From Bdellovibrionales bacterium (lineage in GTDB: Bacteria; Pseudomonadota; Alphaproteobacteria; UBA9219), in assembly GCA_040275305.1 (NCBI GenBank), contig JBEOJY010000022.1:3455-67454 (forward strand): 64,000 nt of DNA, read 5' to 3'. Under the pieces are notes generated by a model. That model saw only the letters and a program-made list of their open reading frames with translations. It made no database searches and was not told the origin of the DNA. This document shows positions 49,805-53,173 of this stretch, one piece after another. The position numbers were made by a program, and so were the translations under genes. Numbering within the stretch: the first letter of the stretch is position 1; the number at the start of each line of letters is the position of its first letter.

Positions 49805-50114
49805 TATACGCCCTATGATTGGAACCCCGAAAAAGCAACAAGGGCCGTCATCGCGAGGAGCTACCCGCAAGGACCGTCATTGCGAGCCCCCTCTTGGGGG
49901 CGACCTGTCCGCCATAGTTGCGTAGCAACGACGGCGGAAGCAATCCAGAATCCCACAGGACACTCCCACCGACTCTGGATCGCCGCGTCGTCTCCCGCTT
50001 TGCAAGCGGGAAACTCCTCGCGATGACGCCCCTTCTGCAAGGATTGTCTTTCATGAGCACAAGAAGCGCTTTAAGGGCCAGCCATTTTTCGGCTTCCCAA
50101 TCATACGAGGTATA
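49805..50114. mobile_element. MITE-like element (TATAC-TIR family) with CGTCATCGCGAG cargo
   Basis: tatacgccctatgattggaaccccgaaaa ... ttttcggcttcccaatcatacgaggtata; arms match 52873..53173. Confidence 0.8.
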
Positions 50115-50262
50115 CAAGCTTTGGCGGCTTTCCTAGCCGCTACATCCTCGCTCGCTCATTTTCTTCTGTTTTTGTTTAGCTCATGTCGCCCTCGTTTTTA
50201 CGGGTTGCGCAGCGCTTTCGTTTGGCGTTTCGCGTTTTGGCGCTAATCATAGGGATACTTCT

Positions 50263-50949
50263 ATGGCCAATGATTTCAATATTTCCGATGTTCTGCCTTG
50301 GGGTCGTAGCGCGGAAGAGTACCGCGTTATGTTCATGCTGGGCGATTTATCTCCTTCAACGCGCGTTCTCGACGTGGCGGGCGGACCCGCGTCTTTCAAC
50401 GCGGAAATGACGCAAGCGGGATTTCGCGTCGTTTCGGTTGATCCGCTTTACCAGTTTACGGAAGCAGAAATCCGACAGCGCATGGAGGAAACGCGCGGAA
50501 TTATGATGGAGGGCGTGCGCAAAGCTCGCGACAGGTTCGTGTGGGATTTTTTTTCTTCTCCCGAAGCGCTGGAGTCAGCCCGCATGGCGGCCATGGAACG
50601 CTTTCTGTCTGACTATGCTGCCGGATTGTCCGCAAAGCGTTATGCACAGGGGGCGTTGCCCCAGCTTCCCTTCGCAGACCTTTCGTTCGATCTCGCCGTG
50701 TGTTCGCATATGATGTTTTTGTATGCGGATGTGTTGGACGAAGCTTGGCATATCGCCGCGCTTGGCGAGCTGTTGCGAGTTGCGCCTGAGGCGCGGTTCT
50801 ATCCCTTGCTGGATTTGAATGGCCAACCTTCGCCGCATGTCACAGCGGCGAGGAGGTGGGCGCAGTCGCAAGGCTATTCTGCTGAGACGCGGTGCGTCGC
50901 CTATGCGTTTCAGAGGGGGGCGAACGACATGCTGGTTATCAAGCGTTAG
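50263..50949 (+). CDS. Class I SAM-dependent methyltransferase
   Basis: VLDVAGGPASF, VSVDP, LPFADLSFDLAVCSH, ELLRV. Confidence 0.85.
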   Translation: MANDFNISDVLPWGRSAEEYRVMFMLGDLSPSTRVLDVAGGPASFNAEMTQAGFRVVSVDPLYQFTEAEIRQRMEETRGIMMEGVRKARDRFVWDFFSSPEALESARMAAMERFLSDYAAGLSAKRYAQGALPQLPFADLSFDLAVCSHMMFLYADVLDEAWHIAALGELLRVAPEARFYPLLDLNGQPSPHVTAARRWAQSQGYSAETRCVAYAFQRGANDMLVIKR

Positions 50950-51379
50950 TCGTTAGGCCGGGATAGAGCAGCGCGGCGCGGATCTTTGCGCGGGTGGACG
51001 CTTCGAAGGGATGGAGGCGGAGGCGACGCAAGTTGATATCAAGATACGTCGCGCATTCCTGCGCGGGCAACCGCTCTAGCATCGTGGTCTGTGGCGCAAG
51101 ATCAACGGCCAGCGCGACTCGCGTTTGTTCGAGAAACGGCATGCGCAAGATCCCGATATGGCGCACTTCGAGTAGACCTGCGATGGCTGTTGGAGCGCTG
51201 GCGATCAAGCCCCCCTGCTCCACGCGCAAATCTGTGCGATCATCGGAAACAAGCTTTGCGCCGTTCTCGATCAAGCGTAGGGCGAGATCGGATTTTCCGC
51301 ATCCCGACACGCCGAGCAACAGCACGCCGTCGTCACCAAACGCGACGCAGCTTGCATGAATGTTGATTGTGTCTGGCAA
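50939..51379 (-). CDS. hprK: HPr kinase/phosphorylase (short alphaproteobacterial form)
   Basis: HASCVA, GVLLLGVSGCGKSDLAL, LVSDD, LLEVRHIGI. Confidence 0.9.
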   Translation of the reverse strand: MPDTINIHASCVAFGDDGVLLLGVSGCGKSDLALRLIENGAKLVSDDRTDLRVEQGGLIASAPTAIAGLLEVRHIGILRMPFLEQTRVALAVDLAPQTTMLERLPAQECATYLDINLRRLRLHPFEASTRAKIRAALLYPGLTTNA

Positions 51380-51419
51380 CGCTTATTCCCTGCCGAACGA
51401 TGGAGACATTCGTTGAGTC

Positions 51420-51644
51420 TCAGGCAATCACGTCGAGCAGCGTGTTGTTCATTTTGTTGACCGCTTTGACCACGGCCGCGTTGGCCGCATGTTCGTTCTT
51501 CGCGACCATGATCGACACGGACTCCGCCGCGATATCGACGTTGGCTTCCGGGACCGAGGCGGTTGCTATTTTTTGCGCCGAGGTTGCGACGCGCGCCGAT
51601 GCCGCGTTGATTCCGCCTACCGCTACCTTAAGGGGGTCTGACAT
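51420..51644 (-). CDS. Small protein resembling the flagellar rod/hook C-terminal domain
   Basis: SD AAGGAG; N-terminal GGINAAS.RV..SAQKIA; C-terminal NVDIAAESV.IMVAK...ANAAVVK...TLLDVIA. Confidence 0.72.
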   Translation of the reverse strand: MSDPLKVAVGGINAASARVATSAQKIATASVPEANVDIAAESVSIMVAKNEHAANAAVVKAVNKMNNTLLDVIA

Positions 51645-51931
51645 AGCGCACTCCTTTTTCGTCGCATCCTATCGTTCTTTTGAACTCAGGAGCCTACAGA
51701 TTCCAAGCTTAGATACTATTCTGCAGACTAATAATTAATATTTTCTCAATGATCCCTAGCAAATATCAATACTTATTGTCGTAAAATCAATGATTAGGCC
51801 AAAATTTTTCGTAAAATAGCGAAAATACCGTTTTGCATTAACCACGGATTCAGCAATCACCACTAGGTTGGAGTTATCAAGACAGTCAATCACAAGAACA
51901 AGGCTATCTTTACTCACTTAGGATCACGATC

Positions 51932-52171
51932 ATGGCTCAGGAATTCGAAGCCCGTTATGCCTCCAGCTCGACCGACGAAACTCTCGAACGGTTGGTGGCG
52001 ATGACAAACCAGACCAATCTGGTGGCACTCGACAAAACTCTTTCCGCTATCCGTCGTTCGCAGATTTGCTATGCCGCTGCGGCAGCCCGCGTGGGCAGCA
52101 TCGGCGAGCGTATCGTGCGCGCGGCCCATGAAGTCGGTATGACTTTGCCTCCGCATCAAAGAGCTTGCTGA
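51932..52171 (+). CDS. Small protein resembling the chemoreceptor signalling tip
   Basis: LVAMTNQTNLVALDKTLSAIR versus MCP consensus I..IA.QTNLLALNAAIEAAR. Confidence 0.55.
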   Translation: MAQEFEARYASSSTDETLERLVAMTNQTNLVALDKTLSAIRRSQICYAAAAARVGSIGERIVRAAHEVGMTLPPHQRAC

Positions 52172-52404
52172 AGACTGGTGGCGGTTTACGTCATTCCCTG
52201 CTTAGTCTCTCTGCTTGTCTTCCTTTGTGGCCCCCCGCCTCATTCCGCTCTCATCACGATAATTAAGCGGATTTTGTCTTCCCCGTAGCCCGTATCTGTA
52301 TTAGGCTTAGCTTAGTGTTTAGATTCGCGTTGTAAAGACTGGGTTCTTCAGTTAAAGACAGCGCAGTTTTTTTCATATGAATCTAGCGTTAAGGTAGGCT
52401 TGCC

Positions 52405-52644
52405 ATGGTTAACTCGGTTAGCAATCAGTCGCTTTCCCAAACGCAGGGGTTTTCGCATCGCTCGCAGAGTCAAAATACAGCAAGCGTTGTGGCCACTAAA
52501 CTACAGGAACCGACTGTACTTACACAATCGAAGGCGTCTTCGAGTTTTTCATTAGCCTCTGCCGCTGGCAGCGGGGAAGCGCAACAGGCTGCGCAGCCGC
52601 AAGGTTATATGCCGCGAGGCAGCATTGTTGATGTGCTTGCCTGA
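52405..52644 (+). CDS. Small S/Q-rich protein ending PRGSIVDVLA
   Basis: 79-aa low-complexity ORF with SD-like AAGGTAGG. Confidence 0.6.
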   Translation: MVNSVSNQSLSQTQGFSHRSQSQNTASVVATKLQEPTVLTQSKASSSFSLASAAGSGEAQQAAQPQGYMPRGSIVDVLA

Positions 52645-52872
52645 GGTTGCGAAGCTCATCGAGCTATGTTGCGCCCCATCAAAACTTTTCAGATTATAGC
52701 AGGATAGAATAACGCGATCGCGGGAATTTGGCATTGTTGTCGCCAAGAGTAACAAGGCAACATGGCGATAGGATTGCCGTTTTACTTTTTGTTTCAGTTT
52801 TTAATCGCTCTGCGGCTTGATTCTTCGCCTCTTCCTTGAGGATTGCGAAGCCTACTCACAATCGCGTTAACT

Positions 52873-53173
52873 TATACTCCGTAGGATTGGAAAGCCGAAA
52901 ACGCAACAAGGGCCGTCATCGCGAAGAGCCCTCTTCGGGCGACGACGCGATCCAGAGTCGGCGGCGATGTCCTGTGGGATTCTGGATTGCTTCCGCCGTC
53001 GTTGCTACGCAACTATGGCGGACAGGTCGCCCCCAAGAAGGGGGCTCGCAATGACGGTCCTTGCGGGAATCTCCTCGCGATTGACGGCCCTTCTGCCAGG
53101 ATTGTCTTTCATGAGCCACAAGAAGCGCTTTCCGGGCCAGTCATTTTTCGGGTTTCCAATCATACGGAGTATA
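52873..53173. mobile_element. MITE-like element (TATAC-TIR family) with cargo inverted relative to 49805..50114
   Basis: 29-bp TIR tatactccgtaggattggaaagccgaaaa / ttttcgggtttccaatcatacggagtata with two mismatches. Confidence 0.85.

Follow-up and report, generated by a model that had tools for sequence, protein, structure and literature searches.

Within a 64-kb window of bacterial DNA (64,000 nucleotides of contig JBEOJY010000022.1, deposited as Bdellovibrionales bacterium) two copies of a palindromic repeat, copy A at 49805-50114 (310 nt) and copy B at 52873-53173 (301 nt), share their outer arms in the same direction, at 85-89% identity, and carry much of their interior in opposite directions. 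Judged from their sequences, A and B are best filed as a lineage-specific family of CGTC-type repetitive extragenic palindromic (REP) dimers nested in a palindromic shell that resembles a miniature inverted-repeat transposable element (MITE). We tentatively favor, with confidence that stops a little short of even, an origin of the two arrangements by two independent half-replacements, mirror images of each other, in which a high-copy donor supplied one half of a palindromic dimer, and not by a single flip; on this reading the apparent flipped cargo would be a by-product of REP dimer symmetry and not a reversible inversion. A first, sequence-only reading of the window had proposed an invertible element. 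The observation behind that proposal is correct and the object is of an ordinary kind, and the invertible-element reading of A and B is supported by none of the tests that were run.

Structure and relation of the two copies

Each element is built in three layers: an outer TATAC...GTATA palindromic shell, an inner palindrome GCAACAAGGGC/GCCCTTCTGC and, at the center, a dimer of CGTC-tagged REP units whose CGTC tags face outward and whose CCAGA tails point towards the spacer. The shell is bounded by 30-nt terminal inverted repeats, TATACnCCnTAnGATTGGAAnnCCGAAAA, and owes its direction solely to an insert of 46/47 nt that is found in the right arm alone. The inner palindrome, GCAACAAGGGC ... G/CCCCTTCTGC, keeps one direction in A and B. 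A 128-nt module, E-X-spacer, forms the left half of the dimer in A and, reverse-complemented, the right half in B.

Copy A, given on the plus strand unless noted, starts with the left terminal inverted repeat of the shell (TATACGCCCTATGATTGGAACCCCGAAAAA, 49805-49834), which pairs with 50085-50114 (30 nt, 80%), and continues with the left half of the inner palindrome (GCAACAAGGGC, 49835-49845), a motif that recurs on the minus strand at 12376-12386 and 38586-38596, each time in front of a free-standing REP dimer. There follow module E (49846-49874), a truncated Y-like half REP unit (CGTC ATCGC GAGGAG...), then REP unit X (49875-49949; CGTC-ATTGC ... GCAAT-CCAGA), which has two small hairpins inserted in its loop and whose core is the most abundant module, and an asymmetric spacer that travels with X (49950-49973) and aligns to the reverse complement of 52957-52980. 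The other half of the dimer is the inverted unit Y_R (49974-50028, minus strand, where it reads CGTC-ATCGC...GCGAT-CCAGA); units of the Y_R type carry a TCCCGCTTTGCAAGCGGGA hairpin. The right half of the inner palindrome (CCCCTTCTGC, 50029-50038), the 46-nt insert (50039-50084) and the right terminal inverted repeat (50085-50114) complete the copy.

Copy B has its left terminal inverted repeat at 52873-52902, paired with 53145-53173 (29 nt, 93%), and the left half of the inner palindrome (GCAACAAGGGC) at 52903-52913, both on the plus strand, as is REP unit Y_L (52914-52956; CGTC-ATCGCG...CGCGAT-CCAGA). The next three parts lie on the minus strand and are reverse complements of their counterparts in A, namely the spacer (52957-52980), unit X (52981-53056) and module E (53057-53086). 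On the plus strand again are the right half of the inner palindrome (GCCCTTCTGC, 53087-53096), a 47-nt right-arm insert (53097-53143) and the right terminal inverted repeat (53144-53173). Every shell copy starts with TATAC and ends with GTATA, which is compatible with a TA target duplication that would be indistinguishable from the repeat itself, and terminal repeats of the lengths and identities given above, in elements of 310 and 301 nt, are of the kind that marks MITEs. As single strands both copies fold into long hairpins, with energies of -74.5 kcal/mol for A (z -7.4) and -91.3 kcal/mol for B (z -10.5).

CGTC-tagged REPs occur mostly in Alphaproteobacteria and are recognized by a terminal CGTC or TGTC tag, stems that start with complementary A/T, and CCA tails (Di Nocera, De Gregorio and Rocco 2013, PMC3733652). 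The canonical unit has a stem of 8-9 bp, with A-T and T-A as its first pairs, and a loop of 4-5 nt; inverted dimers are frequent and often heterodimers, in some species long palindromes regularly enclose them (Anabaena variabilis has TATAGGA...TGAAA--TTTCA...TCCTATA), and no dedicated or linked transposase is known (PMC3733652). In A and B, units E, X and Y all start with the unpaired tag CGTC (at 49846, 49875 and 52914, and on the minus strand at 50028 and 53056), and the tails, GCAAT-CCAGA and GCGAT-CCAGA, are of the CCA type. The stems of X and Y start with AT as well (ATTGC/GCAAT and ATCGC(G)/(C)GCGAT), yet at only 5-6 bp they fall short of the canonical 8-9 bp, and their loops of 10-60 nt contain mini-hairpins. 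With stems so short and loops enlarged in this manner, X and Y represent a variant form and not canonical members of the class; units of canonical form do exist in the window, at 53350-53375 and 21147-21172, with stems of 8 bp and GAAA as the loop. High copy number is likewise found. Exact unitigs of the X core reach a depth of up to ~3700 in the source run, against ~29 for single-copy DNA, which corresponds to ~100 or more copy-equivalents and may include related strains of the metagenome; exact 31-mers across the E-X junction have depths of 150-260, and five class-1 dimers lie in the window.

The sequences that the sequence-only reading had quoted from both copies were verified in place, and its description of the arms, a common left arm and a common, distinct right arm running in the same direction in A and B, is borne out by direct blastn matches of 88% on the left (A1-57 with B1-57) and 89% on the right (A202-310 with B191-301). 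A repeat search of the window returned the same relation as direct families (49799-49861/52867-52929, 86%; 50024-50058/53082-53116, 94%; 50058-50115/53117-53174, 88%) and as two inverted pairs (49887-49990/52940-53043, 104 nt, 93%; 49850-49900/53031-53081, 51 nt, 90%). A blastn comparison aligned A36-186 over 154 nt with reverse-complemented B68-220 at 94.2% identity (E=3e-63), and the CGTC..GACG interiors of A and B are 59% identical when compared directly and 88% identical as reverse complements. The CGTCATCGCGA/TCGCGATGACG inverted ends that had been named as the boundaries of the reverse-complement relation are real. Since arm and core motifs had 0 occurrences in 100 shuffles of the window, the relation between A and B is far beyond chance.

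The inverted relation is not uniform along the core. A well-conserved block, E-X-spacer, comprises 49846-49973 in A and 52957-53086 in B and is identical in 124/131 alignment columns, whereas in the rest of the core (55 nt in A, 43 nt in B), that is Y_R of A against the reverse complement of Y_L of B, only 40/55 columns match and three indels, 3, 6 and 3 nt long, intervene (Fisher p=7e-5). Such similarity as this residual part has is owed to the palindromic nature of the dimer. The earlier description of the interior as reverse-complemented thus holds for the 128 nt of E-X-spacer and does not extend to the remaining Y half. A core younger than its arms was also considered on the basis of overall identity and was rejected, as the arms (112/128) and the whole core (164/186) do not differ (p=0.86); only when E-X-spacer and Y are treated separately is the divergence informative.

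Both copies are non-coding, with only short overlapping open reading frames (ORFs) inside them. The repeats of the window create spurious, overlapping ORFs of 50-130 aa (49778-50136, 52836-53373, 12088-12408 and 38391-38723) with peptides such as ...GLAMT... and ...LLPPSLLRNYGGQVAPK..., and a protein search with the 89-aa ORF of the repeat gave a single match (P0001), a repeat-derived hypothetical protein from a metagenome-assembled genome (MAG) labeled 'Bdellovibrionales bacterium'.

Origin of the two arrangements

Additional copies from the source run bear directly on how the arrangements arose. Copy C, a 1125-nt contig of the Logan assembly of this run, holds a shell-borne, plain Y_L-spacer-Y_R homodimer. 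Its left part aligns to 52895-52957 of B (left arm and Y_L) with 4 substitutions and one 1-nt gap and its right part to 49970-50030 of A (Y_R) with 3 substitutions and no gap, while its 18-nt spacer is its own, with a related spacer in 2 further contigs. Because C matches both the Y_L of B and the Y_R of A, the indel states of Y_L and Y_R belong to the left and the right arm, respectively. The earlier proposal that the cargo flips between its inverted ends is not supported by this comparison: the Y halves are not mutual inversions, and their arm-specific indel states are common to C. Cargo orientation could also be scored elsewhere. Contig H has the left arm of the shell followed by E and X, the arrangement on the left side of A, and contig G has reverse-complemented X and E followed by the right arm, the order on the right side of B, so the other copies do not all share one orientation. 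Dimers of the form E-X-spacer-Y are found outside the shell as well, in a 3184-nt contig (contig F) and in a 5043-nt contig.

The half-replacement account would begin with a C-like ancestor, a Y_L-spacer-Y_R homodimer in the shell, in which two independent events each overwrote one half of the dimer with E-X-spacer. A free-standing E-X-spacer-Y, as in contig F, may have been the donor, the route being ectopic gene conversion or recombination, or else REP insertion at the level of the unit, and the exchange would have been bounded by blocks of homology at the terminal CGTCATCGCGAGGAG and the central CCAGAGTCGG/CCGACTCTGG. Each arm contains both blocks, inverted relative to the other arm, which leaves a donor free to pair in one orientation or the other. 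In this manner A would have become left-handed, keeping its native right half, and B right-handed, keeping its native left half. An inversion of the whole cargo predicts equal divergence of all its parts; E-X-spacer and Y have diverged unequally, which favors half-replacements.

Several points weigh against this account and are the source of our caution. The indel states of C were read from alignment coordinates and gap counts. If an indel of any length is scored as a single event, the likeness between Y_R and reverse-complemented Y_L is ~87%, equal to that of the arms, so that divergence alone does not tell against an inversion of the whole dimer. The stronger conservation of E-X relative to the arms is only borderline (p=0.05) and could be due to homogenization of a high-copy module. 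Moreover, contigs G and H are known on one side each, the core of A and the right arm of B rest on the window's own assembly, and no donor, enzyme or intermediate was observed.

The same data can be examined in light of a single, unprogrammed inversion of the whole dimer in the past, through intramolecular recombination or through replication template switching across a hairpin or cruciform between the terminal CGTCATCGCGAGGAG repeats, after which both forms persisted or were copied. Such an event fits the location of the boundaries of the inverted relation inside 15-29-nt inverted repeats, the folding of the entire element into a strong hairpin, the presence of both orientations in more than one copy, and the divergence of Y and its reverse complement, which by events is about that of the arms; hairpin-associated small inversions are, in addition, known from plastid genomes. 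What it does not readily accommodate are three indel characters that group the left Y of B with the left Y of C and the right Y of A with the right Y of C. Since the Y indels sort by arm, an extra conversion step is needed, and in no contig does reverse-complemented Y_R stand beside a left arm or reverse-complemented Y_L beside a right arm. We consider this explanation unlikely, with an appreciable chance of being correct all the same.

The REP heterodimer could, alternatively, be a mobile, REPIN-like single-strand unit that inserts or reinserts in the GCAACAAGGGC|GCCCTTCTGC palindrome in either direction with the help of a trans-acting transposase of the HUH/Y1 type or another kind. Dimers of the same class do stand free with a GCAA[C/A]AAGGGC flank, a sister shell family holds a different REP dimer at the same place, and in other species REP dimers are regularly found inside palindromes (PMC3733652). 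On the other hand, the Y halves are arm-specific and hence not carried along with X, neither an empty GCAACAAGGGC|GCCCTT site nor a transposase was found in the window, and CGTC REPs have no known transposase (PMC3733652). Taken together these considerations make a mobile dimer decidedly unlikely. Insertion of the whole GCAAC...CTGC unit in opposite orientations was considered separately and excluded, the outer 10-11 nt having the same direction in A and B. One further scenario, to which we assign a low probability while regarding it as slightly better placed than a mobile dimer, is that E-X-spacer is a currently active CGTC-type REP unit that invades resident REP dimers strand-symmetrically by way of a target that either arm of the palindrome offers, leaving mirror-image products of which A and B would be examples. 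Were this true, the genome would lend itself naturally to a search for the long-missing mobilizing enzyme and the target rule of CGTC REPs.

The sequence-only reading had gone on to suggest that a site-specific enzyme might flip the cargo and that this tiny element could alter transcription into neighboring genes. An asymmetric segment flanked by inverted repeats is indeed present, and copy A does lie in a divergent promoter region, between a rapZ-like gene and a methyltransferase gene. Nevertheless neither a transposase nor a recombinase of the serine or tyrosine type was recognized in the 64 kb, whether among the 61 longest ORFs, which were read, or by Pfam on the 10 unclear ones, and no sigma-70-like site was seen within 49846-50028 or 52914-53086, in what is a weak, consensus-only test; the 4 promoter-like sites of the region are not above the number in shuffles (2.2 +/- 1.7). 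At neither A nor B is there a contig of the run in which an arm continues into a core of opposite orientation, with the caveat that contig assembly drops minor variants. Contig L040 of the Logan assembly is unbranched for 33 nt beyond the left inverted repeat of B, which argues against a sizeable second orientation there. The same repeats, furthermore, bound dozens of copies, and neither Y half is an inverted image of the other. A programmed, reversible site-specific inversion of the inverton type that changes the transcription of neighbors is therefore exceedingly improbable as an explanation, and reversible flipping in situ hardly deserves more credence. No effect on the neighboring rapZ, methyltransferase or phasin genes is indicated.

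A last concern is that A or B might be a chimera, created by a wrong assembly path through the ~80-nt X core with its 100 or more repeats. Partial independent support comes from the Logan contigs and unitigs of the run, and because contigs drop variants missing words are expected in near-identical repeats. Positions 50002-52961 of the window form one exact contig, L040, which confirms Y_R (from 50002) and the right arm at A together with the left arm, including its terminal repeat, and Y_L at B, and a 61-nt single-copy unitig spanning 52932-52992 carries B onwards into the inverted spacer and X. For the existence of both arrangements contigs G and H are independent evidence. The suspicion of an artefact is fed by the Logan assembly breaking inside both elements and by two gaps in exact coverage: 49972-49983 of A is uncovered, and for 53071-53174 of B neither the contigs of the run nor its word index contains an exact word, all 7 contigs aligned there having A instead of C at 53133. 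These gaps most likely reflect bubble removal among near-identical repeats, and we regard a chimeric copy as quite remote.

For screens that look for invertible switches the lesson is that nested palindromic repeats can mimic an invertible cassette, shared arms and reverse-complemented core included, in the absence of inversion machinery. The one-sided arm insert reveals the handedness of REP heterodimers in this lineage-specific family, and if half-replacement is the correct reading, the halves of a REP dimer would be exchangeable independently, which bears on the spread and homogenization of CGTC REPs.

Distribution, related repeats and genomic setting

Right arms related to that of A were found in at least 7 other contigs of the run, including C, D, contig E, the 4957-nt contig G, a 3249-nt contig and a copy with a shortened arm insert. 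The sequence of the region is present in one public run only, from a bioreactor metagenome, and is missing from two sister runs of that run. A scan of one genome per species in GTDB with an 18-mer of the right arm gave 39 matches, all of them due to chance or to a conserved Bradyrhizobium gene, and did not find the element; in JGI metagenome contigs the right-arm pattern and a 29-mer of the X core had 0 matches each, a scan of viral contigs had 0 matches, and distant blastn against plasmids gave no match. In Rfam the sole match at the gathering threshold was a tRNA, and the interval 49500-53600 had no match with E<=1. A literature search produced nothing pertinent on nested MITEs in both orientations, and a literal search for the sequence gave irrelevant matches only.

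The nearest ValS proteins, 76-78% identical, are from MAGs labeled 'Bdellovibrionales bacterium' or 'Alphaproteobacteria bacterium', Micavibrio-like ones among them, and NCBI taxonomy places Micavibrio under Bdellovibrionales; on this basis the host is probably an uncultured, Micavibrio-like alphaproteobacterium. In three relatives ~52 kb around valS (L041-L043) contain none of the repeat motifs, so the expansion of the repeats looks lineage-specific. For the methyltransferase encoded between A and B the nearest homologue is 67% identical, and the only contig with the gene is the run's own, of 2960 nt.

The window itself (GC 55.6%) is core chromosome, as its translations, when read, include ftsZ, an mraZ-ftsI-murE cluster, lptABC-like genes, guaB, glmM, ptsP-HPr-IIA-rapZ-hprK and valS. 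The rapZ-like gene next to copy A starts at 49660 on the minus strand and the methyltransferase gene at 50263. Two further ORFs, 44188-45789 (minus strand; weak domain matches to an N-terminal asparagine amidohydrolase-like protein and to tetratricopeptide repeats) and 40390-42480 (plus strand; weak match to a RelA/SpoT fragment), are possibly genes for effector-like or lineage-specific proteins, with no relation to the A/B elements.

Several relatives of the nested dimers lie elsewhere in the window. A free-standing REP dimer of the same class, with no outer shell, occupies 12274-12386 on the minus strand and presents, from its GCAACAAGGGC side, a Y-type unit and then an X-type tail; a diverged free-standing relative (GCAAAAAGGGC CGTCATTGCGAG...) is at 38440-38598, also on the minus strand. 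On the plus strand, 421-500 holds a CGTC REP dimer, likewise free-standing, with a Y-type unit followed by a spacer and an X-type tail. A canonical CGTC REP dimer whose spacer measures ~90 nt stands free at 21030-21172. Sister composites, in which a TATAC..CCGAAAAA shell surrounds a TGTC-tagged REP heterodimer, are found on the minus strand at 5122-5352 and, in a second copy that is 93% identical over 235 nt and has the same internal orientation, at 54419-54652; they carry GCAAAAAGGGC as inner flank.

Beginning on the last TA of copy B is a further palindromic repeat, 53172-53430, with ends TACCCTACAC... and ...GTGTAGGGTA and 48-nt arms (73%). It holds a canonical REP of the CGTC-1 type (53350-53375, minus strand) paired with 53237-53257, and fragments of it flank a sister composite on both sides, at 5020-5129 and 5440-5520. 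A third shell-like element, TATACTCCGGAACGG... around a GTCATTCCGC hairpin, is located at 25830-25935, and a separate family consists of a 52-nt GC-rich palindromic repeat (GTCACACCCGTCCCCGCCTCCGCGAGGACAGGCTCCGGCGGGTGTC), 98% identical, in intergenic positions at 26086-26137 and 42614-42665.

Comparison with known systems

In invertible switches such as fimS, the hin segment and the invertons of Bacteroides, a dedicated recombinase acts on a segment that carries a promoter, and a single locus is seen in both orientations. A and B resemble them in having an asymmetric segment between short inverted repeats and are unlike them in that a recombinase, an internal promoter and two orientations per locus were not found, as far as the 64-kb window and the contigs of the run extend. 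Closer in some respects are the hairpin-associated small inversions of plastid non-coding DNA, where the loop enclosed by inverted stems occurs either way round and no dedicated enzyme is involved. Here, too, the loop of a stem-loop is seen in both orientations; the plastid inversions are, however, single-locus events between species, whereas A and B are paralogous repeat copies, and their indels point away from a simple loop inversion.

As to the shell, the Correia/NEMIS elements of Neisseria are bacterial MITEs with TA-flanked inverted ends, and they share with A and B a size of ~100-300 bp, terminal inverted repeats of 25-30 nt that start with TATA, a non-coding sequence, intergenic positions and several copies per genome. 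The present elements differ in that a nested REP dimer fills most of their length, and they have no known cognate transposase. The bacterial interspersed mosaic elements (BIMEs) of E. coli are mosaics of REP units in alternating orientation and other short motifs, and the alternation of REP units and the mosaic with short motifs are found here as well; BIMEs, in contrast, belong to the GTAG superfamily of REPs and are devoid of an outer inverted-repeat shell. In REPINs (Bertels and Rainey 2011) the tag is reportedly GTAG, and a RAYT transposase gene is associated with them. Like them, A and B combine two inverted REPs and a spacer into one long hairpin and belong to a within-genome population with a high-copy master sequence, but the tag is CGTC instead of GTAG and no RAYT-like ORF was recognized within the 64 kb.

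The closest likeness in our comparison is to the CGTC-tagged REPs, with which the elements share the tag, the A-T/T-A start of the stem, the CCA tail, high abundance, the organization as inverted heterodimers with spacers and the setting in a long palindrome (PMC3733652). What sets A and B apart from the known members of that class are their short stems and large loops, the fused E-X module, and a one-sided 46-nt insert in the shell from which the handedness of the dimer can be read.

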